Virus record (IMG/VR): IMGVR_UViG_3300037336_000152
Span: 1 to 59,133 of that record
DNA length: 59,133 nucleotides
Direction: 5' to 3' (one strand)
From: a virus
Taxonomy: Duplodnaviria; Caudoviricetes
Of this stretch, positions 18,022 to 59,056 are shown one piece after another (within the stretch, counting starts at the first letter, position 1; each line of letters begins with the position of its first letter). The notes under the pieces are model-generated. The model was given only the letters and a program-made list of their open reading frames with translations. It was not told where the DNA came from and searched no databases. Made by a program: the position numbers and the translations under genes.

Positions 18022-18474
18022 ATGACACAACGCGGCAGAAAATCGGGGGCTATGAAAGAGGTCGCCGGTCTAGTCGCGCCTACGCGCGTTGACGAACGCC
18101 TCCGCGCGCCATTGCACCTAAGCGATGCGGAGCGCTCGGTCTGGGTAGAGGTAGTTAACGATCAGCCTGGAGGTGCATTCACGCCGACGCACTCGCCCCT
18201 GCTGGAAATGTACTGTCGGCACATTACGCAGGCTCGCATTCTTGCTGATGAGCTTATCAATTTTGAGCGCGCATGGCTTGCTGATAGTGACGGGCTGAAA
18301 CGATACGACCGCCTGCTGGCGATGTCCGAGCGCGAGAGCCGGGCCGCGTCGTCACTGGCCACCAGGCTAAGGATTACGCGCCAGGCTGTTGAGCATCCGA
18401 CGACTGTGGGTCGCAGCCTGAAGAACCAAGCGAAGGGACGCAAGCCGTGGGAACTCGCGCTGAACGAAAGCTAA
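18022..18474 (+). CDS. terS: Terminase small subunit
   Basis: P..LS..E..VW...LLEMYC...LATRLRIT; precedes terL. Confidence 0.8.
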   Translation: MTQRGRKSGAMKEVAGLVAPTRVDERLRAPLHLSDAERSVWVEVVNDQPGGAFTPTHSPLLEMYCRHITQARILADELINFERAWLADSDGLKRYDRLLAMSERESRAASSLATRLRITRQAVEHPTTVGRSLKNQAKGRKPWELALNES

Positions 18475-20018
18475 GCCGAGGCGAGCGCAATATTGCGTGG
18501 GTCGAAGATCATTGCCGCATTCCAGAGGGTCGGCTGGTCGGAAGGCCGGTCAAGCTAACCAAGCATCAGCGGCGATGGATTTGCAGAATTTACGATTCCC
18601 CGACTCGCGTATTCATTCTGACGATGGCTCGGAAGAATGCCAAGACTGCACTATCGTCATTTCTTTTACTCCTGCACCTGTGCGGGCCGGAAGCGAAGCC
18701 GAACAGCCAGCTTTATAGCGCGGCACAATCGCGCGACCAGGCATCAATCCTGTTCGCACTCGCGGCCAAAGTTGTAAGGATGTCGCCAAGTCTGTCGGAG
18801 TATGTGGGCATTCGAGACACCGCAAAGCAACTCTATTGCGACGAACTCGGGACGCTATACCGCGCGCTGAGCGCTGATGCATCTACAGCATACGGGCTTA
18901 GCCCGGCCTTTGTTGTGCATGATGAACTTGGACAGGTCAAGGGGCCGCGATCCGAACTATATGAGGCGCTGGAGACTGCAAGCTCCGCGCAAGAGTCGCC
19001 CCTGTCAATCGTGATCTCGACGCAAGCACCGACCGATGCCGACTTGCTGAGCCTCCTGATTGACGATGGCCTGACCGGAGCTGATCCGCGCATCAAGGTC
19101 GAGCTATATACCGCGCCACTTGATTCGGACCCATTCAGCGAAGAGTCGATCAGAGCGGCAAATCCGCACTTTGATGACTTCATGAACAAGGAAGAGGTTC
19201 TTAGGCAGGCGTCGGATGCGAAGCGAATGCCGAGCGCCGAGGCCGGCTACCGGAACCTGATCCTAAATCAGCGCGTCGAGTCGCGAAGCCCATTTGTCAC
19301 GCGCTCGGTATGGCAGGAGAACGGCGCAGCGCCGCGAGAACTTGAGGATGGCGCGGAAGTATTCGGAGGGCTTGACCTGTCTAGCGTTTCTGACCTAACT
19401 GCGCTGACGCTCATTTCTGAGAGCAAGGAGCCGATTGGGCGCAAATACGTAGACGGGCGACTTGATTCTGATGTTAAACCGTGGGATGTCTACCCGACAT
19501 TTTGGCTTCCAGAAAACGGACTAGCCGAAAAGTCGCGCGCCGACAGGGTGCCTTACGACCTATGGCAGCAACAAGGCTTTCTCATGACAACGCCAGGCGC
19601 GTCGATCGAATACGAGTTCATCGCAGCGCATCTGCGCGAGGTATTCGACCGCTACAACGTGCGAGCGCTGGCGTTTGATAGGTACAACATGAAATTTTTA
19701 AAGCCGTGGCTGGAGCGCGCCGGGTTCACAGGGGACGAACTATCCAGGTTCATAGAGTGGGGACAAGGCTTTGTGGGGATGTCGCCGGCAATCAGGGAAT
19801 TTGAATCACTTCTCTTGGCGCGAAAGTTGCGACACGGGAATCACCCAGTGCTGGCTATGTGCGCCAGTAACGCGACAGTCGTTAAAGACCCTGCCGAGAA
19901 CCGCAAGTTCGTCAAGGGCAAGGCAACGGGGCGCATTGACGGAATGGTGGCGCTGGCGATGAGCGTCGGCGTGATGCCGCAAGCGCCATCATCTGAAACA
20001 AAATCATTCTGGGAATAA
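18447..20018 (+). CDS. terL: Terminase large subunit
   Basis: ARKNAKT, VHDELG, ISTQ, GGLDLS...DLTAL, RIDGMVALAM. Confidence 0.95.
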   Translation: MGTRAERKLSRGERNIAWVEDHCRIPEGRLVGRPVKLTKHQRRWICRIYDSPTRVFILTMARKNAKTALSSFLLLLHLCGPEAKPNSQLYSAAQSRDQASILFALAAKVVRMSPSLSEYVGIRDTAKQLYCDELGTLYRALSADASTAYGLSPAFVVHDELGQVKGPRSELYEALETASSAQESPLSIVISTQAPTDADLLSLLIDDGLTGADPRIKVELYTAPLDSDPFSEESIRAANPHFDDFMNKEEVLRQASDAKRMPSAEAGYRNLILNQRVESRSPFVTRSVWQENGAAPRELEDGAEVFGGLDLSSVSDLTALTLISESKEPIGRKYVDGRLDSDVKPWDVYPTFWLPENGLAEKSRADRVPYDLWQQQGFLMTTPGASIEYEFIAAHLREVFDRYNVRALAFDRYNMKFLKPWLERAGFTGDELSRFIEWGQGFVGMSPAIREFESLLLARKLRHGNHPVLAMCASNATVVKDPAENRKFVKGKATGRIDGMVALAMSVGVMPQAPSSETKSFWE

Positions 20019-31016: not shown

Positions 31017-31466
31017 ATGAACACCGAAAAAGACGTAAGCAATCTGGCATTCAAGTTGATCACCAACCTCGACATCGACGCATACGAAGATGTTCCGACC
31101 GGCAAATTGATCATCCTGGACCCGAAGACCCAGGCTCCAACCAGTTCATTTATTGAGCTGGCAAGCCCGGAGCACGAGTCGCGCAAGCGCCTTGACCTGA
31201 CCCGCACGCGGGCATTGCGGGCCGAGTATGCCAATACCGGAAAGATGCCGAGCACTGACCCTATTGACGACATCGAAGACGAAACGAACTATCTCGTCGC
31301 CGCGACGTTGAGCTGGAATATCACTCAGGGTGGCGAACCTCTGGAATTCACTCCTGCCGCCGCTCGCAAGCTCTACACCGACCCGAAAAAGCAATGGCTT
31401 CGCGCCCAGGCGCTTGTTGGCCTGCGTAAAACAGAGCTTTTTATCAAAACCTCCGCAAAGGCCTAG
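31017..31466 (+). CDS. Tail assembly chaperone (G)
   Basis: LVAATLSWN...LEFTPAAARKLY...WLR.Q. Confidence 0.85.
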   Translation: MNTEKDVSNLAFKLITNLDIDAYEDVPTGKLIILDPKTQAPTSSFIELASPEHESRKRLDLTRTRALRAEYANTGKMPSTDPIDDIEDETNYLVAATLSWNITQGGEPLEFTPAAARKLYTDPKKQWLRAQALVGLRKTELFIKTSAKA

Positions 31467-31795: not shown

Positions 31796-34700
31796 ATGAT
31801 CGTCGGAGATATGGAAATCCGCCTTCGCGCGGATATCGCTCGATTGCAACGCGACATGGACTCTGGCCGCCGCGTGGTCAATGACGCCAGTGCGAGCATG
31901 AGCCGCGCAGCCGACCGGATCAAGACGGCATTTGCCGGTATCGCTGCTGGTATTGGGCTGTCTCAAATCATCTCGATGACTGACCAGTACGCGAAATTCA
32001 CAGCGCAGCTGCGCCTTGCCTCAACATCAGCGCGCGAGTACGCTGCGGCCTATGCTGATGTAAAGCGAATCTCTACCGCTGCGCAACAGGACTTGCAGGC
32101 TACCGGCGTGCTGTACGCCCGGATAGCCAACGGCACGCGAGAACTAGGCACCACGCAAAAGCAAGTGGCCGCGATCACCGAAACCGTCAACATGGCGCTC
32201 AAGGTTTCGGGCGCCACGGCGGCTGAATCCGCATCTGCGCAACTCCAGCTTTCCCAGGCATTCGCATCTGGCACGCTCAGGGGCGAGGAATTCAACGCGG
32301 TCAACGAGGCCGCGCCGCGCCTGATGCTCGCCCTTGCCGATGGCATTGGCGTTCCTGTGGGCGCGCTAAAGAAAATGGCTGAGAATGGCCTAATCACGTC
32401 CAAAATTATGTCTGACGTGCTTCCGAACGCGCTTGAGAAGCTGCGCGAAGAAGCCAAGGAAGTGCAGACCATCGCCGGGGCATTTACTGTCCTCAAAAAC
32501 AACATGATGGAGTTCGTCGGGGTGCAGTCGAATGCAAGCGGGGCTGTATCGGCGATGACCGGCGCGATTGGACTCCTGGCCAATAATCTGACCCTGCTTG
32601 CCGGCGCAATGCTTACCGTTATGGCTGCGAAACTTGGCTCGTTTCTCGGTGCTTCGGTCGCGAAAACTTATGAGAGCGTGGCATCGAATCGCGCACTTGT
32701 GGCGGCCAATCTCGCAACAGCGAATTCTCAAGTTGCGGCAACATCGGCAATTGCATCAACAACGGCAGCTCGCCTTGCCGAACTTCGCGCTGTAGTACTG
32801 GCTGCGCCAGCGACTGATCGACTTTTCCTGGCCACTACGGCACTCATACCAGCGCAAGGCCGCGCCGCCGCCGCCGCGACTGCGCACGCCGCAGCGCTCC
32901 GCGTGCAGTCGCTGGCAATGGGTCAAGCATCTATTGCTGGAGGCATCTTGCGTGGGGCCGTGGCGTTCCTTGGCGGCCCAGTCGGCGCGATCATCACACT
33001 GCTTGGAGCTGGCGCTATCGCATGGAGCATTTGGGGCGACAAAGGAAGCGAGGCTGAGAAGAAGGTCGTTGACACGCTGGCTAATGAGATTGATGACTAT
33101 CTAGCGAACCTGAACAGGCAAATCGAAAAACTCAAGGAGCGCAACGAGCTGGCCGGGAAGGGCATGGTTTCTGCTGCCGCTCCTGAGAGTGATTACGACA
33201 AGAAGCGCGAAAAGATCATGGCCGAAATTAACCGAATCGGCAACCAGGCTGATCTCAATGTCGCGGCCAAAACTGAGATTTTGAAAGTATGGGGCGGGAA
33301 GCTCAATCAATTAACCATTGATATGCAAGCACTCAATGTCGCCCAGCAAAAAAACAAGGATCTTACGTTTTCCGGCAAAGAGGCAGATTGGCTTGGAAAG
33401 TACGGGACTGCCGCGCAAAAAACGGCGTACGAACTTGACGCTTTGCGCAAGGAATTTGGTAGAGTGACGCCCGCTATGGAGGCTCATGTAAAAAGCAAAT
33501 ACGCGGACAAGGGCGCGGCCACTGCCATCAATCAAGAGGCATCTGCCTACAAAAATCTTGTCGCCTCCATTGGTGAAAAGATCGCAGCCAACAAGCTCGA
33601 AATGAGCGGATACAACAAGCTTAACGATGCTCAGAAAATGACGATCAAGCTCGATGAGTCCATTGCATCAGGCAAGAACAAATTGAGCAAGGAGAGTATC
33701 GAGTCCGTGCGCGTGATGATCGCCACTGTGGCCGATCAGGATGCGTCGATCAGATCCGCCAATGACCACAAGAAATTGATGGATGACGCTTTGGCGAGCA
33801 CTGATAAGATCGTCGATGCCATCGACGAACAGACCCGCGCCCTGCAATTCAAGATCAAGACCTACGGCCTTTTGCCGTCCGCAATTACCGCTGTCCAGAT
33901 CGCCGAGCTGGAAGCGTCGCAGCAGTCGCTTGCCCTGAGTGATGCGGGCGTGGCAGACATCCAGCGCAAGATTGACGCGCTCAAGGGCCTGGCAAGCGCG
34001 CAAGCTGCTGCTGGCGCACTCGAAACCAATCCAGGTCTCACCCGCGCCAAAGAACTACTCGATGTCATGGCCCAGATCGACGAGGTGACGAAATCGGCAG
34101 CTGCTGGCATGGCCGAGTCATTTGGCAAAGTTGGCTCTGCCATCGGCGGCTTGACGACCGCGCTTTCAGGTTACGGTCGCGCGCAGGCTGCAATTGCCGC
34201 GCAACTGGCGGCCGCAACGAAGGATGCAGGCGGCGACACTTCAAAGATCGCCAAGGCGAACACGCTCGCGGCGCATCAGTCGGCACAGGCACAGGTGCGC
34301 TCATACGGCGATATGGCCAGCGCCGCCAAGGGCTTTTTCAAAGAGAACACGGCCGGCTACAAAGTCATGGAGGGCGTCGAGAAGGCGTACCGCGCTACTG
34401 AAATGGCGATGGCAATCGAAACCATGATTACCAAGAGTGGCATTCTTACCGCGTTCACCGGCATGTTTGTGGCGAGCAAGGCGACGGAGGCGGCGGCAGA
34501 GGTTGGCGCAACTGGCGTATCAGTCGCAGCTGCGGGCACTCAGTCAAGCGCATGGGGCATCACGGCTGTCGTCAAAGCGCTGGCATCCCTGCCATTCCCC
34601 GCCAACCTTGCGGCGGGCGCGGCCACTCTCGCGGCTGTGGTTGCCATTGGCGCCAAAATGATCGGGGGTATTGGCGGCGGTGGAGGCGGCGGCCAGTCCG

Positions 34701-37297
34701 CAGCCGACGCGCAGAAGGCGCAGGGCACTGGCGGCGTGTTCGGTGATGCAGATGCCAAGTCGGCATCGATTGCCAAATCTATCGAACTGCTCGAAAAGAA
34801 CTCGGGCAGCCTGATCCCGCTGAATCGCGGCATGCTCTCGGCACTTCGCGCTATCGAAGCGTCGATGTCTGGGCTGACGAATATTCTCGTCCGAACGCCA
34901 GGTGTGATTGATGGCTCGAATCTTGGCATCCAAGAGGGAGTTCTGGCGAAAAGCAAGGGGCGCTCCGGGGTAGGTATGGCCGCTGGCGCTGCGGCTGGCG
35001 CGGGCTATGGCGCTACTGCCGGCGCAATTCTAGGGCCGCTTGGCGTTGCCATCGGCGCGGTCGGCGGCGCATTGCTCGGGGCCGCTGTCGGCCAGCTAAT
35101 GAAACTCTGGGGCAAGACCACGCAAAAAATCGTGGACTCTGGCATACAGTTTGGCGGCAGTGTGCGCGGCTTGCAAGCAGGCCAAGGGATCAATCAATAC
35201 GCCAGCGTGGATACGACGAAATCGAGCTGGTTCGGCCTATCGAAGAAAACGACGAACTCGATGCAGACCGCAGGCTTGAGCAATGAATTGACCGCTCAAT
35301 TTGGCCTGATCTTCACCAATGTTGAAAATGCTTTGGCCGAGGCTGCCGGCGCTATCGGAATCGGCTCTGGTCAAATCACGTCCGCACTCGACGCGCTGAC
35401 CATCGACATGACCAGTATTTCGCTCAAGGGGTTGACCGGCACGGCGCTGACAGATGCGCTCAATGCCGTGATCAGCAAGACGACTGACGAGATGGCGCAG
35501 GCTGCAATCCCCGGAATGGACGCGTTCCGGCAAGTGGGCGAGGGCTACGCGCAAACCGTGATCCGAATCGCGTCGAACTATGCGCAACTGGACGTCGCGC
35601 TGTCGTCCATCGGCATAACCTTTGGCGCGGTTGGCGTCAACTCTCTGGCGGCGCGCGAAAAATTGATTGAACTTTCTGGCGGTATTGATGCGCTGGCGCA
35701 GAACGTCGCATCGTTCGCTGAGAACTTCTTGACCGAAGCCGAGCGCCTGGCTCCAGTACAGAAGTACGTTACCGAGGAACTGGCGCGCATGGGTTACGCC
35801 GGCGTCACGACGCGCGATCAGTTTAAAGACGTGGCCATGGGTCTAAATCTCGCCACGGCCAAAGGCGCGGAACACTTCGCTGGTCTGATGTCCCTGCAAG
35901 CCGCTTTCGCCATGGTCACGCCAGCAATCGACCACGCTGCCATCGCAGCTGCCAATCTTGCAAAGGCGGAGCAAGAGCGAACAGCCGCAATTGAGGCGCA
36001 AGCAGCGGTACTGGCTGCGCAAGCTGCAGCGCTCCAGGCGACGCGGGACGATGCCGCCAATCTGCTGTCTGGTGTTGATGCGGCTTTCGGTGTTTTGCAG
36101 CGCGTGATCAATGCCGAGAAATCGAAAATCAACGAGGCTCACGCGCTGACGATGAAGAATCTGGGCGAGCGCATTACTACTGAGACTGCGGCAGTCGCAA
36201 AGCACAAATCGTTAGCCGATTCGATCAACAATTCGCTCGAGCAGATGCGCGCAGATAGCATTGGCACAGGTGCGCGCGCCGATGCTCAATCGCAGATCAA
36301 AATGATGCTGGCCATCGCGCGGTCGGGCGGTCCATTGCCGACATCGGACGCGCTCAAAGGCCCGCTCTCGGCGCTGTCCAAAGACGCATCGGGCCAGTTC
36401 GCCACTCTGGTCGATATGCAGCGTGACGCGGCTCGATCCCACAACGATCTGGCCGAATTGGGCGCACTCACCGACAAGGCGCTCTCGGTCGAGGAACGAG
36501 CACTGGCAGCGCTCGAAAGCCAGCGCGACAATGCGCAGCTCGCACACGCGGCCGAGATCGCGCGGCTCGATGGAATCGTTGCGCAGGCGCAGACTGAGAT
36601 TGACATCATGCGCGGAATGGATGTTTCCCTGCTGACCATTGCGGGCGCCATGGCGGGCCTGCAATTGGCACTCCTGGCCGCGATGAAAAACCCGATCAAC
36701 GCATCGACCGGAGCGATCACGAGCGCATACCAGACGTCACTTGGCCGCGCGCCAGAGGCTGCTGGATTGAAATACTGGCAGGACGCAGCTGCTGGCGGCA
36801 TGGGCAATTCTGAGATTGAAAAGCTGATCGCCAACTCGTCGGAAGCTAAGGTGCAATCGCTGTTCAAGTCGGTGCTCGGTCGCTCGGGCGATGCTGCTGG
36901 TCTTGACTACTGGACGCAGCAAATGAACTCCGGCCTATCCGTCGATGCTGCGCGTCAGATGTTCATGCAGTCGGACGAGTACAAGCGGCGCCAAGGAATT
37001 CCGGGCTTTGCTGTCGGCATCAATCGAGTGCCGTTTGATATGCCGGCGATGATCCACAAAGATGAGGCGGTCATTCCCGCCTCGTTCAATCCGTTCAATC
37101 CTAATGCGCGGCCGGCGATTGCGGGCGGCGACACGCAGCGCCTTGAGCGGCTGGTTGAAGCGCTGACCGCTGAAGTGTCGCAGCTTCGTAAGGACAACAG
37201 CGCCGAGAACATCGCAATCGCTAAAAACACGCTGACCGTAGCCGACATTCAAGAGAAGCAAGAGGCCATCGGCCTGCCAGCAGAAAGGGCTGCATGA
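31796..37297 (+). CDS. Tape measure protein with C-terminal DUF4214-like repeats
   Basis: QLSQAFASGTLRGEEFNAVNE tape-measure domain; Ala-rich helical; AYQTSLGRAPEAAGLKYW / LFKSVLGRSGDAAGLDYW. Confidence 0.95.
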   Translation: MIVGDMEIRLRADIARLQRDMDSGRRVVNDASASMSRAADRIKTAFAGIAAGIGLSQIISMTDQYAKFTAQLRLASTSAREYAAAYADVKRISTAAQQDLQATGVLYARIANGTRELGTTQKQVAAITETVNMALKVSGATAAESASAQLQLSQAFASGTLRGEEFNAVNEAAPRLMLALADGIGVPVGALKKMAENGLITSKIMSDVLPNALEKLREEAKEVQTIAGAFTVLKNNMMEFVGVQSNASGAVSAMTGAIGLLANNLTLLAGAMLTVMAAKLGSFLGASVAKTYESVASNRALVAANLATANSQVAATSAIASTTAARLAELRAVVLAAPATDRLFLATTALIPAQGRAAAAATAHAAALRVQSLAMGQASIAGGILRGAVAFLGGPVGAIITLLGAGAIAWSIWGDKGSEAEKKVVDTLANEIDDYLANLNRQIEKLKERNELAGKGMVSAAAPESDYDKKREKIMAEINRIGNQADLNVAAKTEILKVWGGKLNQLTIDMQALNVAQQKNKDLTFSGKEADWLGKYGTAAQKTAYELDALRKEFGRVTPAMEAHVKSKYADKGAATAINQEASAYKNLVASIGEKIAANKLEMSGYNKLNDAQKMTIKLDESIASGKNKLSKESIESVRVMIATVADQDASIRSANDHKKLMDDALASTDKIVDAIDEQTRALQFKIKTYGLLPSAITAVQIAELEASQQSLALSDAGVADIQRKIDALKGLASAQAAAGALETNPGLTRAKELLDVMAQIDEVTKSAAAGMAESFGKVGSAIGGLTTALSGYGRAQAAIAAQLAAATKDAGGDTSKIAKANTLAAHQSAQAQVRSYGDMASAAKGFFKENTAGYKVMEGVEKAYRATEMAMAIETMITKSGILTAFTGMFVASKATEAAAEVGATGVSVAAAGTQSSAWGITAVVKALASLPFPANLAAGAATLAAVVAIGAKMIGGIGGGGGGGQSAADAQKAQGTGGVFGDADAKSASIAKSIELLEKNSGSLIPLNRGMLSALRAIEASMSGLTNILVRTPGVIDGSNLGIQEGVLAKSKGRSGVGMAAGAAAGAGYGATAGAILGPLGVAIGAVGGALLGAAVGQLMKLWGKTTQKIVDSGIQFGGSVRGLQAGQGINQYASVDTTKSSWFGLSKKTTNSMQTAGLSNELTAQFGLIFTNVENALAEAAGAIGIGSGQITSALDALTIDMTSISLKGLTGTALTDALNAVISKTTDEMAQAAIPGMDAFRQVGEGYAQTVIRIASNYAQLDVALSSIGITFGAVGVNSLAAREKLIELSGGIDALAQNVASFAENFLTEAERLAPVQKYVTEELARMGYAGVTTRDQFKDVAMGLNLATAKGAEHFAGLMSLQAAFAMVTPAIDHAAIAAANLAKAEQERTAAIEAQAAVLAAQAAALQATRDDAANLLSGVDAAFGVLQRVINAEKSKINEAHALTMKNLGERITTETAAVAKHKSLADSINNSLEQMRADSIGTGARADAQSQIKMMLAIARSGGPLPTSDALKGPLSALSKDASGQFATLVDMQRDAARSHNDLAELGALTDKALSVEERALAALESQRDNAQLAHAAEIARLDGIVAQAQTEIDIMRGMDVSLLTIAGAMAGLQLALLAAMKNPINASTGAITSAYQTSLGRAPEAAGLKYWQDAAAGGMGNSEIEKLIANSSEAKVQSLFKSVLGRSGDAAGLDYWTQQMNSGLSVDAARQMFMQSDEYKRRQGIPGFAVGINRVPFDMPAMIHKDEAVIPASFNPFNPNARPAIAGGDTQRLERLVEALTAEVSQLRKDNSAENIAIAKNTLTVADIQEKQEAIGLPAERAA

Positions 37298-48102: not shown

Positions 48103-48371
48103 GATTGGATCCATGCGGTTCGGTTTGGAAACCGACGCACTAAAGTCCAATTTAGGGCGGCGGCCTGGCAGGATTGGACTACCGGAAACCGCATGCGCGA
48201 ACCGGCGAGCCGTGAGGCTCTCCCACCAGGCCGCCATAGGAGGGGCTGGAAATGAAAAAGCTACGACGTGAGCGTAGCTATATGCCACGCGGTTTATCAG
48301 GAGTCCAATCCTGGCCGCGTTTTTCTCCGCGGCAGAGAAATCATGCGCCTGGAATGCGTTATTGTCAAGAT

Positions 48372-52347: not shown

Positions 52348-53199
52348 TCATGCTGCGCTCGATGGTGAAAATGCATCGCGCATAGCGTCCAGCCACTCCT
52401 GAGACCATTGCAGAGCAAGCGCGGAAAACTGGCTAGTCTCTGGCGTATCGCCTCGACGGATGCCCAAGAAAAATCGCTCGGCTGGGCGTGAGCTATTTGG
52501 TTTGAGGCTCCCAAGATCGTTGACCGAAGCTTTGCGCGCCGTCGCGATTGTGCCAACCAGGCAGGAGCATTCGCCCGAGTAAGTCGAACCATCGACGCGT
52601 CCAGCTTTCAAGGCTTCGATCAGTGCCTGGACTTCATGCGGTGCCGATGAAAGAACAGCCCAAATGTCGTCACGGATCGGCAATAGCTCGGCATCGCGCA
52701 GATCGGCACCGCGCAGGTCGGCACCGCGCAGGTCGGTATTGCGCAGGTCGGCATCGCGCAGATCGGCACCGCGCAGGTCGGCACCGCGCAGGTCGGTATT
52801 GCGCAGGTCGGCATCGCTCAGGTCGGCACCGATCAGATCGGCACCGCTCAGGTCGGTATTGCGCAGGTCGGCACCGCTCAGGTCGGCATCGCGCAGGTCG
52901 GCACCGCTCAGGTTGGCACAGCTCAGATCGGCACCGCTCAGGTCGGCATCGCGCAGGTCGGCACCGCTCAGGTTGGCACAGCTCAGATCGGCACCGCTCA
53001 GGTCGGCATCGCGCAGGTCGGCACCGCTCAGGTCGGCACCGAGCAGATCGGCACCGCTCAGGTTGGCATCGCGCAGGTCGGCACCGCTCAGGTTGGCACC
53101 GCTCAGATCGGCACCGCTCAGGTTGGCCATGCTATTAGCCTCCGCGTCATGCGCAAACAGTGTTGCTCCGGTGTAGCGATGTTTGATTTCGATAATCAT
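52348..53199 (-). CDS. Pentapeptide-repeat protein
   Basis: 29 A(D/N)LxX units; C-terminal domain [16 protein letters not shown]. Confidence 0.92.
52693..53127 (-). repeat. 15-bp coding tandem repeat x29 with 60-bp higher-order units
   Basis: Consensus GCC GAC CTG AGC GGT. Confidence 0.95.
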
Positions 53200-53207
53200 G
53201 TTCTCTC

Positions 53208-54224
53208 CTAGTTGTTGGATTCCACAAACTCACCAGCCGCGTCGAGCATGTACCAGGCGCCGGCCTTGATGCCGTTGTCGCCGACCTTGCTGGCGCGAAT
53301 GTGGATCAGTTCGTAGTTGTCATTGCGATACACGAGGATGATTGCCCCGCTTTCGCCGGCCATGGCGCGACCCATATAGCCAGAGGCCATGGCGACGGAA
53401 TCTCGCCCCGTGTTGCTGGCGGCGCTGCGGTCGCCCGTGTTGCTGGCGGCGCTGTAGTCGCCCGTGTTGCTGGCGGCGCTCTGGTCGCCCGTGTTGCTGG
53501 CGGCGCTGTGGTAGCCAGTGTTGCTGGCGGCGCTCTGGTAGCCAGTGTTGCTGGCGGCGCTGCGGTCGCCCGTGTTGCTGGCGGCGCTGCGGTAGCCAGT
53601 GTTGCTGGCGGCGCTGTAGTCGCCAGTGTTGCTGGCGGCGCTCTGGTAGCCAGTGTTGCTGGCGGCGCTGCGGTAGCCAGTGTTGCTGGCGGCGCTGTAG
53701 TCGCCAGTGTTGCTGGCGGCGCTGCGGTAGCCAGTGTTGCTGGCGGCGCTGTAGTCGCCAGTGTTGCTGGCGGCGCTCTGGTAGCCCGTGTTGCTGGCGG
53801 CGCTGCGGTAGCCAGTGTTGCTGGCGGCGCTGTAGTCGCCAGTGTTGCTGGCGGGGGATTCAGGGTCAACAGGCCCGCAACGGCTGATCGTGTATGCAAT
53901 AGCCGCTTTCACAAGGCCGGCAAAATTGATCTCAGCACTGACCGTCAGAGTTTGGCTTGCGACATTCGTGTCTTCGCCGTGGCGACTAAGTTGCCCGGAC
54001 TGCTCGACAGCGGCAAAATTGCTGCCAGCTGGTGGGTAGTAGTTGAAAATGTCGAGCGGATATTCGCAGGCATGAAAGCCGGATTTGCACGCATCCACAT
54101 CGCCATCGTGCGTGTACGTTTCGCCGACAGCGTATTGAAAATCGCGGCACTTCCAATGTTTGTCAAATCCCTTGTACGAAATTACCGTTTCCTCTGGCTT
54201 GCTTGCTGAAACCTTCTTGCTCAT
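53208..54224 (-). CDS. Phage protein with YKGF...GFHAC N-domain and 9-aa SAASNTGxx repeats
   Basis: YKGFD...CR.FQY..G...C..GFHACE.PLD.F.YY; C-terminal V...GIK...WY.L...GEF. Confidence 0.88.
53406..53852 (-). repeat. 27-bp coding tandem repeat x17
   Basis: AGC GCC GCC AGC AAC ACK GGC KAC NNS. Confidence 0.95.
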
Positions 54225-54729: not shown

Positions 54730-54859
54730 GCGGACACCGCGCCAACTTGGATCGCCGCACCAATGCCGCGTGCGGCGCAGAACGGCGCTTTGCGGGCCGG
54801 GCGTGCGGGGCGGGTCAATGTAAGCATGGTGTCCTCTGGTGCTGTGTGGCGATGAGGTA

Positions 54860-54900
54860 ACTATAGCAAATTGCTTTTCCATTTGCAACAGCAATTTGCT
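54860..54900 (-). promoter_or_regulatory. pL/OL with cassette-B operators
   Basis: Minus strand TTGCAA-N17-TATAGT with AGCAAATTGCT-type palindromes at 54865-54875 and 54890-54900; near copy of pR-B. Confidence 0.85.
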
Positions 54901-55268
54901 TTTATTTATGCTATGATTACCCATCGCAGGAATTTTTGGCGATCGCCTCGCACGCGTTATACGCTTAGAGTTGCAATGCAGTGCTGCGTGGTAATAGTCG
55001 GCAGTGGTTGTAAGAGATAAAAAAAGAAACACCGAAGGTGAAAAATATAGTCATCTTGCGAAGCAAGTGACGCCCCCGTGGCGAACGGGCCTCCACGGCG
55101 AGTGGGGTGTGATTGATTAGTTAAGGATGAGCCGTCGATTAAGCAACCAGCACATAGCTTTAGCTACTACGCGTGCGAATACCATAAATTCGATGCCTTG
55201 AATAGGCATATTGGAAGCGACTTTAAGATTTTAAAGTAATATAGGCGGGTGGCCATTCAGGCGAGCAA

Positions 55269-55291
55269 GAAAAAGCCCCGACTGGCGGGGC
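55269..55291 (-). terminator. Intrinsic terminator for leftward moron transcript
   Basis: Minus strand GCCCCG-CCAGT-CGGGGC-TTTTT. Confidence 0.7.
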
Positions 55292-55521
55292 GATGGGGAT
55301 GACAATGATGGACCAAGGCAAGCAAGGTGAAATAACATTTAAGGCAAGGGCTGCGGTTCAGATCGCAGGCCGCCGCTTCGATGGCTCGACCGAGTTGTAC
55401 CTATTGGCAACCACGGAATTGCCCGAGTTCTGGGTTGCCTTGGGGCGTCAAGGTAAGGCTGATCCGATCGGCTACCTTCACTATGTACAGGCTAAGAATG
55501 CTGGCAATGCCACTGGCGACG

Positions 55522-55998
55522 CTATTGAGAGGACGTTTGAATTGCGTGAAGTACTCTCGGCCAACTCTCCAGCCCCGCATCCAATAATTTCATTGTCAGG
55601 TATTTTATGGACTCGCCGCGCAGATCTCGAAGCTGATCGATCCATCCTTGCTTATCTTCAGGGCTTAGATCTGATCTGCTGATTCGCGCTTCGACCATCG
55701 ACTTGATTGTATCGTCGTGCAATTTGACCGTCAGCACGCCGAGGATGGCCGATAAGCCACCATCCTCGGCCAGCAGGTCCAGTCCATTAACCGTTATCCG
55801 CGCATAAAGGAAGTGTTTTGAGGTGCTGGCAACTGCGGATGAAATATCCCCGTCGATCAGTCCGTGCCCGTAGAGATAGTGCATATTCGGCGTGACTTCC
55901 GGGTTATCCTTTGCATGCTGCTGGACGTTGGCTTGCGCAGGATAGGCTTCGGCTAGCTCTTTGAGTAATTCGAGCTGCAGTGCTCGGTCAAGTTTCAT
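55522..55998 (-). CDS. Moron: winged-helix-like hypothetical protein
   Basis: LDRALQLELL..L...YP...N..YL..HGLI...ITVNG.D.LA.DGGLSAILGV.TVKLH.DTI. Confidence 0.75.
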   Translation of the reverse strand: MKLDRALQLELLKELAEAYPAQANVQQHAKDNPEVTPNMHYLYGHGLIDGDISSAVASTSKHFLYARITVNGLDLLAEDGGLSAILGVLTVKLHDDTIKSMVEARISRSDLSPEDKQGWIDQLRDLRGESIKYLTMKLLDAGLESWPRVLHAIQTSSQ

Positions 55999-56525
55999 AA
56001 TCGCTTTCGTAGTTGATGGACACACTCCGCTCGGCCTGCAAGCAAAAAGTGGAGCGCACTTAATTTTAACCAACAGAAGCCCCGAATGGTGGGGCGTGGA
56101 ATACCAGGCATGGGCGAAGAAGATCTGCGACTTGCGCGGCGCGGAAGGGCGTTAAGAAGCCTGCTCGGGCGGGCTGGTGTGGGAGTAAGCTGGTCTGGCG
56201 CTACTTACTTTGGTGGTGCCGTGGAGGCGGGTACAGTGATGATGACTCGGCGCGCGGCATTGCGGCGGCACTCGGCCCGTCAAAGCCAGGCGGTAAGGAT
56301 TTTTAGCGGCTTGTGAATGGCAAGGGTTGTCGAAACACCGTGGTGCGGAAGTGATTTAAAAAGTGATGCAACCCATTGAATTCAAATGGGATTACCTTGG
56401 TGCGGCTGTATGCGCGCGATCAGCAGGACGCCGATGGTTGGCGCCAGGTCGGCGCCAGGTCGGCGATATCAACAAGGGCGATGAGGATAGATCTGCCATT
56501 GAGGAGGCGGTGGCAGTGCGCACAT

Positions 56526-57278
56526 TCACTTCAGGGCTGGTGCTGGCGGTGTCGGCTGCGGCACAACTGGCTGAGACGAAGAAACTGCCGATGGCTGGAT
56601 GACAGGTACTGAATGATGGGAAGCCTTGTTGATGTAGGTTAGCAAGCCAACCGTCGCACCAATAATCGCAATCGCAATACCGAGACCCCATTTGATAAGG
56701 TCAGAAGTATTCTTGTGCATCTCCGTTTGCAACTTGGCCATTTCCGTACGCATTTCGGCGAAACCTACCCGCACGTCCGCAAATCCTGTTTTGATGCTTG
56801 CGTCGAAGTTGGCAAGGCGTGCGTCAATCTTCGCTTCCGAAGCAGCGATCTTTGCATCTACTTCCTGGCGGGTCAGATCAGTCATAGTTGCATCATTGGG
56901 CAGTTCTTCGTTATTGTCAACCACGGAGTGGGCGCGAATCGGCTTAGAGGTCGGCGCAGGGGCATCATCAACTGGAGGTGTTAGCGAGGCAAAGTCTTCG
57001 GCCAGCGCCATTATCTCGGCCAATCGCTTTGCGCCATCTTCGGTGGACGGGTTGGTGTCTTGCGCGGCCCGCTTGAATTCTTTCCTCGTTGTAATCCCTT
57101 CAAGCCCGAGTGCTCTCAGCCGCTCGCCAATGGTCGCGGCCATCGTGTTTTGCCGTCTGGCGTGCTGAATATAGGCCTCAAACCCCTCACCAGCCCGGTC
57201 AAGAGTTTCGGTTTTACTCGGCGCCGCCGCCTTTGTTGCTTGCGTCGACGGCTTGCGCCTATCTTTTATGGATGCCAT
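56526..57278 (-). CDS. Moron: TMP-like N-domain + coiled coil + C-terminal TM + Pro-rich tail
   Basis: Residues IGERL...PPVD align with the tape measure protein; TRQEVDAKI...EMAKL...LIKWGLGIAIAIIG DUF1640/CCDC90-like stalk and anchor. Confidence 0.8.
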   Translation of the reverse strand: MASIKDRRKPSTQATKAAAPSKTETLDRAGEGFEAYIQHARRQNTMAATIGERLRALGLEGITTRKEFKRAAQDTNPSTEDGAKRLAEIMALAEDFASLTPPVDDAPAPTSKPIRAHSVVDNNEELPNDATMTDLTRQEVDAKIAASEAKIDARLANFDASIKTGFADVRVGFAEMRTEMAKLQTEMHKNTSDLIKWGLGIAIAIIGATVGLLTYINKASHHSVPVIQPSAVSSSQPVVPQPTPPAPALK

Positions 57279-57556: not shown

Positions 57557-57916
57557 TCAGAATGCAAGTGCCTGAATTTTTGTAAATGTTTTAGCGTCAG
57601 TAGTGGCAAGCATCTTCTTTCCATCCTTCATTATCAGAATGAAAGTAACATCCTTGCCCCTGCCTCCGAGCAAAAGGCCCGCCAAAAGCCCAACAGGTCC
57701 GAGCAATACGCCGCCAGCAAGTCCCCATCCAACTGTGCCGCCAGTGCGCTTTACATCCTCCTCGGATGCGACGGATGCCGACTCAACCTGCCCAATAAGA
57801 GTGACGGTCTTCCCTATAAGTCCATCGCCAGGCTGCCATGCCAGCAAGATGACACTGGCAGATGCAGAGTGCCTACCCTTCGGGAAGTCGCCAGCATGTA
57901 TTTCAATTGTCGCCAT
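57557..57916 (-). CDS. Moron (cassette B): glycine-zipper membrane protein
   Basis: IHAGDF...EEDVKR.GGTVGWGLAGGVLLGPVGLLAGLLLGG...VTF...KDG...LA; GGAGGA RBS. Confidence 0.75.
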   Translation of the reverse strand: MATIEIHAGDFPKGRHSASASVILLAWQPGDGLIGKTVTLIGQVESASVASEEDVKRTGGTVGWGLAGGVLLGPVGLLAGLLLGGRGKDVTFILIMKDGKKMLATTDAKTFTKIQALAF

Positions 57917-58083
57917 ATATCCTCCACTCGGCATCATCGCGTGCCGTGTCGCCCATTGATTATACGCAAAAAAAAATGATGAAATCTAACCAATTGTTGC
58001 TATGTCGCACATAGCCATGATGTGAGAATTTGTTAGTTTTAAAGCATCAAAGTAATCGTAAAAACGCTTATTGTTCTGCGCAT

Positions 58084-58138: not shown

Positions 58139-58375
58139 ATGCAAGATGTGCAGCAACTATTAAATCTTTATGAGCGTACCAATGAGATTGGCAGGGACTT
58201 TCTCATTGACCAGGCCAAGAAATGTGTGCGGGACTGGCCGGCGAATGTTGTGGCGACCCTACCCACCCTTAGACTCGTCCCGCCTCTGCCCGTCCGTACG
58301 CCGCATGGCCGACTCGACGCCATTGGAAATCATTCGTCGTGCCACCTCGTCGCCAAGACGCCATGCAATAAGTAA
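58139..58375 (+). CDS. Small protein convergent with cI-B; putative antirepressor
   Basis: CTGGAG RBS; QQLLNLYERTNEIGRDFLID...PTLRLVP. Confidence 0.6.
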   Translation: MQDVQQLLNLYERTNEIGRDFLIDQAKKCVRDWPANVVATLPTLRLVPPLPVRTPHGRLDAIGNHSSCHLVAKTPCNK

Positions 58376-58672
58376 TCGCAATTCATCCGTCGATCTGGCA
58401 CCGTCACTCAATAAGCTATTTGAGTCGCCATCATTGCTTTTTTCATGGTCTCGGTCCATCCATCCGACAGGCTTATCGCAACCATGTTCAAGCTTGCGCG
58501 CTAGGGCGTCACCTACGCCACGAACCGTTCCTGTAGACGACTGAGCGCCAGTCAATATTTGACTCAGGTACATGGGGGCCGTGAGCGCCCGCTTAGCCAC
58601 GTCGTCGGCGGTCTTAAATTCGGCCACCAGGGAGCGCAGGTTTTTCAGTCTCAATTCTTTTGATGTGGCCAT
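58259..58672 (-). CDS. cI: CI-like repressor, cassette B (no S24 peptidase domain)
   Basis: R..NLR.L...YLSQI...RGVGDALARKLE...P.GWMD..H HTH family; divergent from cro. Confidence 0.85.
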   Translation of the reverse strand: MATSKELRLKNLRSLVAEFKTADDVAKRALTAPMYLSQILTGAQSSTGTVRGVGDALARKLEHGCDKPVGWMDRDHEKSNDGDSNSLLSDGARSTDELRLLIAWRLGDEVARRMISNGVESAMRRTDGQRRDESKGG

Positions 58673-58685
58673 GTCGATATTAAAT

Positions 58686-58750
58686 AGCATTGCGCTCATT
58701 TGGAGAATGTGCAAATTGCTATTGCAAAACCAAAAGCAAATTGCTATAGT
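58686..58750. promoter_or_regulatory. OR/pR of cassette B
   Basis: Sites AGCATTGCGCT, TGCAAATTGCT, AGCAAATTGCT; TTGCAA-N17-TATAGT. Confidence 0.85.
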
Positions 58751-58756
58751 TGGTGC

Positions 58757-59056
58757 ATGAAACTTCTCAGATACGTCCAGACACACAGTACTCAGCGCGA
58801 ACTTGCCGTTAAGTTGGGCATTACACCGGTACTCATCAGCCAGTGGGCCAACGAATCAAGGCCAGTACCGCCAGAGCGATGCGTTGAGCTGGAGATGGCA
58901 ACTGACGGGATGGTTACTCGTCGTGATCTGCGCCCGGACGATTGGTTGCGCATCTGGCCAGAACTTCGTCCCACCCGCAAGCCATTAGCCAAAACCGTCA
59001 TGGAGACGGGAGTCGATCAGACTGACCCGAACTGCGTTGCACAAAACCCCAAATAA
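58757..59056 (+). CDS. cro: Cro/YdaS-family regulator, cassette B
   Basis: QRELAVKLGITPVLISQWANESRPVPPERCVELEMATDGMVTRRDLRPDDW..IWPEL. Confidence 0.9.
   Translation: MKLLRYVQTHSTQRELAVKLGITPVLISQWANESRPVPPERCVELEMATDGMVTRRDLRPDDWLRIWPELRPTRKPLAKTVMETGVDQTDPNCVAQNPK

Follow-up and report, generated by a model that had tools for sequence, protein, structure and literature searches.

A tail-anchored protein encoded in a phage immunity region carries a head homologous to a domain of tape measure proteins

Why should a phage keep a piece of a tape measure protein (TMP) beside its repressor, joined to a membrane anchor? The question is raised by a gene of the window, the whole stretch of 59,133 nucleotides analysed here, which is a complete viral record. 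The original prediction, made from the sequence alone, had read the product of this gene as a membrane-tethered mimic of the phage's own TMP that would act against related phages. The answer depends on whether the resemblance is homology, on how old it is, and on where and when such a protein would act.

The TMP-like head and its homologues

The following features enter the comparison.

56526..57278, minus strand: gene of the tail-anchored protein, 250 aa, an open reading frame
56961..57215, minus strand: head, a three-helix domain (residues 22-106), assigned by homology to the conserved TMP domain
31796..37297, plus strand: tape measure protein, 1833 aa, with TMP_3 at residues 57-242 and DUF4214 near the C-terminus
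35681..35938, plus strand: TMP domain homologous to the head (residues 1296-1381), located by sequence comparison

The resemblance had been proposed from the translations of 56967-57131 (minus strand) and 35768-35932 (plus strand), both of which are exact, and a recount of the ungapped alignment between the small protein and the phage's own TMP gave the same 22 identities in 55 positions. Ungapped BLOSUM62 scoring of the 55-mer along the 1833-aa TMP gave a best score of 108, at TMP residue 1325, and none of the 300 shuffles of the 55-mer used as control reached this value (mean 14.8, sd 5.9, maximum 42). Pairwise BLASTP aligned the two proteins with 24/68 identical residues at an E-value of 4e-9. 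A hidden Markov model of 8 homologues, from which the window's own protein had been excluded, matched TMP residues 1302-1381 with 48.4 bits (E 3.6e-17, Z=1), and the model made from the small proteins alone matches many other TMPs with 50-58 bits. The PHROGs search assigned residues 34-113 to phrog_25966, tail length tape measure protein (E 2.3e-8). Since the shuffled controls, BLASTP, both hidden Markov models and PHROGs agree, we regard the similarity as homology over about 85 residues. The predicted TMP-like segment is real, but its extent had been placed at 55 residues and is closer to 85 (small protein 22-106 against TMP 1296-1381).

The head carries the pattern FL..ER....L..G..G.TTR.QFK...G....L..L..FA of a conserved domain in the C-terminal third of TMPs. 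This relation is one of shared domain ancestry and not of membership in the TMP family; the 250-aa protein is not a TMP by definition, being short, encoded in the immunity region and without a TMP family of Pfam. The gene of the TMP itself comes just after a chaperone-like gene (31017-31466). Its product has two DUF4214 repeats near the C-terminus, as well as Gly/Ala-rich hydrophobic stretches starting at about residues 384, 934 and 1075 and a glycine run near 970, all of them N-terminal to the shared domain.

When the segment profile was run against 1.84 billion cluster representatives, the domain was found in 2781 clusters at E<=0.001 and in 448 at E<=1e-10. Among the best 150 of the 2781, three are proteins of about 250 aa of the present kind and the other 147 are long proteins or pieces; 127 of the best 150 are longer than 1000 aa and carry the domain at a relative position whose median is 0.71, and five short members are C-terminal TMP fragments. 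Many of the long proteins among these 150 hold two to six tandem copies of the domain (P0053, P0054, P0058, P0060, P0094 and others). P0053 repeats a unit of about 125 aa, of which a conserved upstream stretch (…ARE.LI.LAGG…) is missing from the small protein. About 89 (counted by eye) of the 120 matches listed in a word-indexed search carry TMP_2, TMP_3, PhageMin_Tail or DUF4214, and the names among the matches listed are 'tape measure', mostly from Massilia, Pseudoduganella and other Pseudomonadota. A word-indexed search of longer proteins with the head alone returned nothing at E<=0.001, although profile searches did find them. Search of a phage collection with the TMP domain gave one record, Microcystis phage Me-ZS1.

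Five long representatives were scanned with Pfam: TMP-type families appeared in two, DUF4214 in one and only odd weak matches in another, and the fifth was without any family; in the window's TMP no Pfam family covers the domain itself. AlphaFold2 (AF2) folds the domain into a bundle of three helices with a mean pLDDT of 85.7. No PDB entry matched the head model in a fold search at E<=0.001, and the sequence profile of the domain found nothing meaningful among PDB chains. The shared segment is therefore best described as a strongly conserved, unannotated TMP domain. As it is both widespread and strongly conserved among TMPs, it probably has a specific partner for which a copy could compete.

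Architecture of the protein and its stalk family

Behind the head, the protein continues with the following parts.

56871..56960, minus strand: disordered linker, residues 107-136 (AF2, family alignment); in the AF2 model the disorder begins at residue 100
56688..56870, minus strand: stalk helix, residues 137-197 (AF2), distantly CCDC90-like/DUF1640-like in relatives
56631..56687, minus strand: single transmembrane helix, residues 198-216 (mean Kyte-Doolittle 2.06; AF2)
56529..56630, minus strand: Pro/Ser-rich disordered tail, residues 217-250 (AF2)

All homologues begin with MAS[VIT]K, and an AAGG Shine-Dalgarno-like motif lies 5' of the ATG. In the full-length AF2 model, for which 52 relatives were used, a basic disordered N-terminus precedes the head, whose helices (22-56, 65-74 and 80-99) are modelled with pLDDT above 90. 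The end of the linker and the start of the stalk form the family motif VDN..x..M-T-D-L-T-R-Q-E. The coiled-coil stalk and single C-terminal transmembrane helix of the original prediction reappear here as one continuous helix (137-219) that spans stalk and membrane segment, and the only hydrophobic 19-mer of the protein is 198-216. No signal-like stretch was found at the N-terminus, and the type-B anchors of relatives have four to five Lys/Arg on the N-side flank versus one on the C-side. Because of the lack of a signal sequence, the C-terminal anchor and the positive-inside rule as applied to the type-B flanks, an N-in, tail-anchored topology with a cytoplasmic head is most likely. The predicted location is the inner membrane, and the Pro/Ser-rich tail (217-250) would lie in the periplasm. 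With the head in the cytoplasm, any action on an injection channel would have to come from the inner membrane face.

A promoter-like site, TTGACA-17-AATGAT (10/12), lies within the gene at 56892-56920 (minus strand) and ends 6 nt 5' of the ATG of Met132, the residue to which the first residue of the family's stand-alone stalk proteins is equivalent. Its GTT GAC A is kept in 4/4 DNAs available. The site may serve a head-less short isoform starting at M132 or may merely reflect the VDN...M peptide motif; as this motif is conserved in the protein across the whole family, we regard an internal promoter as unproven.

The arrangement of head, coiled-coil stalk and C-terminal membrane anchor is shared with the DUF1640/CCDC90-like proteins (PF07798; MCUR1 family), of which the head is unrelated to the TMP-like head. 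Weak PF07798 matches at E<=0.1 were obtained for 40 of the 52 family members (best 1.4e-5) and none for the window's protein. DUF1640 is described as a membrane protein family with a beta-layer motif, [aliphatic]-A-T-K-[polar]-[DE], at the start of its C-terminal stalk (PMC4786415). The T-[RK]-polar-[DE] at the stalk start of the present family resembles the motif, in the form given by that source, only in part: D-L-T-R-Q-E (P-T-R-E-E in type B) agrees with it at 4/6 positions by eye.

The 52 relatives were collected at E<=0.001. The TMP-like head is present in nine of them, in one fragment (P0010) and in one further protein from locus L005, and it occurs on at least two kinds of stalk and anchor. 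The remaining relatives consist of stalk and anchor with short or unrelated heads, which bears out the suggestion that N-terminal domains are swapped on the same stalk. M132, R137, R154, L155, A156, S161, G165, R177, H188, K189 and W197 are nearly invariant; they sit in the linker-stalk junction and the stalk and include polar residues (listed as R137, R154, S161, G165, R177, H188, K189 and W197), which suggests that the stalk and anchor are more than a passive anchor.

Annotation of the family is sparse. The 250-aa protein matched no family in Pfam (E<=0.1) or NCBIfam, and PADLOC-DB 2.0 gave 0 families at E<=0.01 for it and six neighbours; in PHROGs the stalk family falls into families of unknown function and in the protein atlas into clusters of hypothetical proteins only. 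We considered whether the other heads are also fragments of virion proteins, but in ten other-head proteins PHROGs matched the stalk only. As these heads match no known virion family, capture from virion proteins as a general origin of heads is unsupported beyond the TMP-like head. A search of the phage collection with the whole 250-aa protein returned one record, covering only stalk residues 112-194. The profile of the head found no locus in genome contigs and one in metagenomes (L015, apparently the same element as L003), so, with the patterns used, these collections contain the TMP-like head only rarely. By comparison, the stalk-and-anchor module, judged from its genomic neighbourhoods, is common downstream of S24 repressors and bears many different heads.

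In stalk-only relatives, a small cysteine-pair gene (zinc-ribbon-like, CPxC...W) overlaps the start of the stalk gene (L016 5589-5912, L017 5511-5912, L018 5495-5902, L022 1774-2070 and L025 5579-5881). The overlap suggests a translationally coupled two-gene module. A Pfam scan of three of these genes found no family.

Location within the immunity region and comparison with the resident TMP

The surroundings of the gene are as follows.

58259..58786, minus strand: cI-like repressor (phrog_12107, transcriptional repressor, E 7e-14); start uncertain, ATG at 58676 possible
58700-59056: cro-like gene, which, like the repressor-like gene, flanks the OR-like array
58711..58756, no strand assigned: OR-like operator repeats (GCAAATTGC type), with a rightward promoter-like TTGCAA-17-TATAGT towards cro
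57557..57937, minus strand: gene of a 126-aa glycine-rich hydrophobic protein between cI and the 250-aa gene (phrog_12025, phrog_20920)
56079..56095, minus strand: GC-rich terminator-like hairpin, 430 nt downstream of the 250-aa gene
54859..54914, no strand assigned: OL-like operator repeats, with the same promoter-like site TTGCAA-17-TATAGT, leftward

The OL-like array is an inverted copy of the OR-like array (41 nt, 88%), and the promoter-like sites point outwards. Flanked by these two sets and downstream of cI, the 250-aa gene lies inside the immunity region and on the repressor strand; the duplicated operator and promoter sets at 54859-54914 and 58711-58756 support its predicted place between pL and cI. 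From this position, expression from the cI promoter during lysogeny may be inferred. The hairpin, taken as 56077-56096, has a 90% identical copy at 55273-55292, and the two copies bracket a 183-aa gene (55522-56073; phrog_3983, weak DUF2513) that looks like a separately acquired cassette.

In lambda the same map position, on the cI strand between OL and the repressor gene, is occupied by rexAB. No sequence similarity to RexA or RexB was detected at the level of Pfam families, neither the 250-aa protein nor its 126-aa neighbour having one at E<=0.1; RexB is polytopic, in contrast to the one membrane helix of the 250-aa protein. The arrangement is kept elsewhere. In 3/3 related viral records, the head-bearing gene is downstream of a repressor-like gene on the same strand, with a helix-turn-helix (HTH) and peptidase S24 in two and a weak HTH in one. 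Upstream of the stalk-only relatives in ten viral loci, the same strand has an S24 repressor in eight, an HTH protein in one and nothing recognisable in one, and in Pseudomonas phage vB_PaeS-D14O the stalk relative comes two genes after the annotated cI.

A TMP with the domain is present in all four complete head-bearing phages (the window and the three records). Where the stalk protein bears another head, a domain-bearing TMP was found in 3/10 records, which by completeness amounts to 3/6 at >=85% and 0/3 at >=90%. Against the set that is at least 85% complete, the hypergeometric p for co-occurrence is 0.17, a value that comes from four related genomes and a small control. The co-occurrence of the head with a same-type TMP is suggestive, the numbers being small and the genomes related.

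The head is not specifically a mimic of the phage's own TMP, and here the original prediction has to be corrected. Identity is 50-73% among the heads and 22-34% between heads and TMP domains, and by this measure heads show no consistent preference for the cognate TMP. In a tree of 161 domain sequences, ten heads form one clade (support 0.999) on a long branch, and the resident TMP domains lie at 1.71-1.93 from it, about the median distance (1.76). Because of this single long-branch clade, to which the cognate TMP is not closest, the head is not a recent copy of the resident TMP; by its place in the tree it is an old paralogue of the widespread TMP domain. Being no closer to cognate than to other TMPs, it gives no evident specificity for its own TMP type.

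The head nevertheless changes slowly. Its dN/dS is 0.13-0.21 in the four of six pairs for which dS could be estimated, and among L003, L004 and L005 its dN is 0.15-0.17 versus 0.30-0.41 for the linker. By these rates the head is under purifying selection and selectively maintained, and it is the best-conserved part of the protein.

Possible roles of a membrane-anchored TMP domain

We tentatively favour an exclusion protein, expressed in the lysogen, that would act at the cytoplasmic membrane face to disturb TMP-dependent genome entry; this is possible and far from assured. A tail-anchored inner-membrane protein would be made in the lysogen together with the repressor and would sit at the inner membrane face, possibly as a trimer on its DUF1640-like stalk, which would agree with the stoichiometry expected of a TMP. 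The stalk would present copies of the TMP domain on the cytoplasmic side, and these copies would compete with the incoming TMP for the partner that the domain normally engages or, alternatively, would co-assemble with the incoming TMP. Phages of the same TMP type would then be unable to bring in their genomes. Within this reading, the trimeric state, any binding and the block to superinfection itself are what we infer. A complex prediction of the head with TMP residues 1229-1535 scored 0.47 versus 0.56 for a control in which chain 1 was replaced, and so speaks neither for binding nor against it.

This reading is favoured because the gene sits in the repressor operon and its product is predicted to be a membrane protein with a link to TMP, features reminiscent of known exclusion proteins. 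Exclusion proteins usually exclude their own kind, and the co-occurrence of the head with a same-type TMP therefore counts in its favour. HK97 gp15, TP-J34 Ltp and P22 SieA are described as membrane proteins that block entry, with escape through changes in TMP or ejection proteins, and together with Tuc2009 Sie2009 they are small prophage-encoded membrane proteins whose action is tied to the incoming TMP or ejection proteins (PMC10883804). Like these, the 250-aa gene is expected, by its position, to be expressed in the lysogen. By the descriptions given there, none of the four is a TMP homologue, whereas the head of the 250-aa protein is a paralogue of a TMP domain; moreover, Ltp is an external lipoprotein, and prediction places the present head in the cytoplasm.

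An effect exerted at the cytoplasmic face is plausible because lambda TMP can be reached there: labelling and crosslinking from the cytoplasm during injection have been reported, as has contact on that side with a membrane-anchored defence protein, SNIPE (PMC13190303). SNIPE, like the 250-aa protein, is membrane-anchored with cytoplasmic parts, and it is reported to meet the TMP at the injection site (PMC13190303). It has a nuclease effector and binds TMP through DUF4041, in contrast to the 250-aa protein, which is without an enzymatic domain and carries a piece from TMP itself. Some SNIPE homologues are reported to have an N-terminus homologous to the P22 tail needle, a protein of the injection machinery (PMC13190303), which adds to this plausibility. 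A full-text literature search turned up no described defence made from a TMP fragment, these SNIPE homologues being the nearest precedent.

Other readings have to be weighed against exclusion at entry. The protein may have no part in defence, either as an accessory of the phage's own cycle or of host physiology, for instance by binding a host factor that the TMP domain recognises, or as a membrane protein of the lysogeny operon that resembles TMP by ancestry alone. The stalk family is without functional annotation in PHROGs, the protein atlas and PADLOC, and the persistent presence of a same-type TMP would fit a partnership with the phage's own TMP; the repressor-operon position argues instead for a function in lysogeny, when the resident TMP is not made, and the membrane proteins that have been studied at this position mostly have exclusion or abortive-infection functions. 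We consider a role outside defence doubtful, though well worth keeping in mind. Somewhat more unlikely, but a serious rival because conservation of the stalk exceeds what a mere anchor would need, is an abortive-infection sensor-effector whose head would sense TMP or a TMP partner homotypically and whose stalk and membrane helix would then damage the membrane. A conserved stalk and membrane segment with nearly invariant polar residues below highly variable heads is the usual layout of sensor-effectors, the gene is in the cI operon in the place of rexAB in lambda, and the zinc-ribbon gene that overlaps the stalk gene in several stalk-only loci suggests a partner. Yet there is a single membrane helix without a recognisable pore or enzyme domain, and the use of the same head on at least two anchor variants fits the role of an anchor equally well.

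Interference with tail assembly in the manner of Tab, in which the head would bind newly made TMP or its chaperone and prevent tail formation, agrees with the predicted cytoplasmic head, since tails assemble there, and with the place of the shared domain in the C-terminal third of TMPs. Tab of Pseudomonas phage JBD26 is described as expressed from the prophage and acting through the C-terminal part of TMP; it is encoded between the terminase genes, is accompanied by an anti-Tab gene and blocks assembly rather than entry, and its description mentions no membrane anchor, unlike the 250-aa protein (PMC10884400). The present map position is unlike that of tab, membrane anchoring has no obvious reason here, and the four head-bearing phages, all with a same-type TMP, would block their own assembly when induced, unless an antidote were present. 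Because every carrier has such a TMP and no antidote gene was identified among them, we think assembly interference improbable. Least credible of all, and very improbable in our judgement, is an anti-defence decoy whose TMP-like head would soak up TMP-binding host proteins such as sensors of the SNIPE or Avs18 type. TMP segments are bound by some reported host defences (PMC13190303; PMC13581612), but a decoy would be needed at injection or late in infection and not from a lysogeny operon, it would lower the protection of the host in the lysogen, and such sensors might be set off, not blocked, by a fragment of TMP.

The preferred reading, exclusion at genome entry, can be carried one step further. 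A domesticated TMP domain, mounted on a trimeric, tail-anchored stalk at the cytoplasmic membrane face and expressed with the repressor, might act as a dominant-negative or competitive mimic and keep out the genomes of phages that share its TMP type, with the stalk family as a general scaffold for baits; we regard this fuller version as conceivable but rather unlikely. If true, an exclusion protein made from part of its own target would here be seen for the first time, and the stalk family with its interchangeable heads would be a repressor-operon scaffold for presenting baits. Phage-phage competition would gain a new design principle, in which a captured copy of the invader's injection protein takes the place of an unrelated binder. 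A function would follow for a domain that occurs in tape measure proteins by the thousand, and the mimic might lead to the partner of this domain; another function would follow for the tail-anchored family downstream of repressors in many temperate Pseudomonadota phages. Even if the defence reading fails, the domain and the stalk family are well defined and ready for curation. As for the earlier interpretation, TMP homology, the head-stalk-anchor layout, the position on the cI strand of the immunity region and the swappable heads have stood, and mimicry specific to the phage's own TMP has not.

Several observations concern other parts of the window. At 48153-48241 (minus strand), a full-length match to the C4 antisense RNA of Rfam (RF01695; 60.1 bits versus a gathering score of 45), an immunity RNA of the P1/P7 type, lies within a lambdoid-looking early region. 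In the leftward early operon, the gene of a pentapeptide-repeat protein adjoins that of a collagen-like repeat protein (52348-53199 and 53208-54224, respectively, both minus strand); the best NCBIfam match of the pentapeptide-repeat protein is the Alr5209 family (E 4e-40), with weaker Qnr/MfpA-like matches, all below cut-offs. The large terminase (18447-20018, plus strand) is 75% identical to that of Pseudomonas phage PAJU2; in contrast to this PAJU2-like terminase, the named relatives of the TMP are mostly from Oxalobacteraceae.
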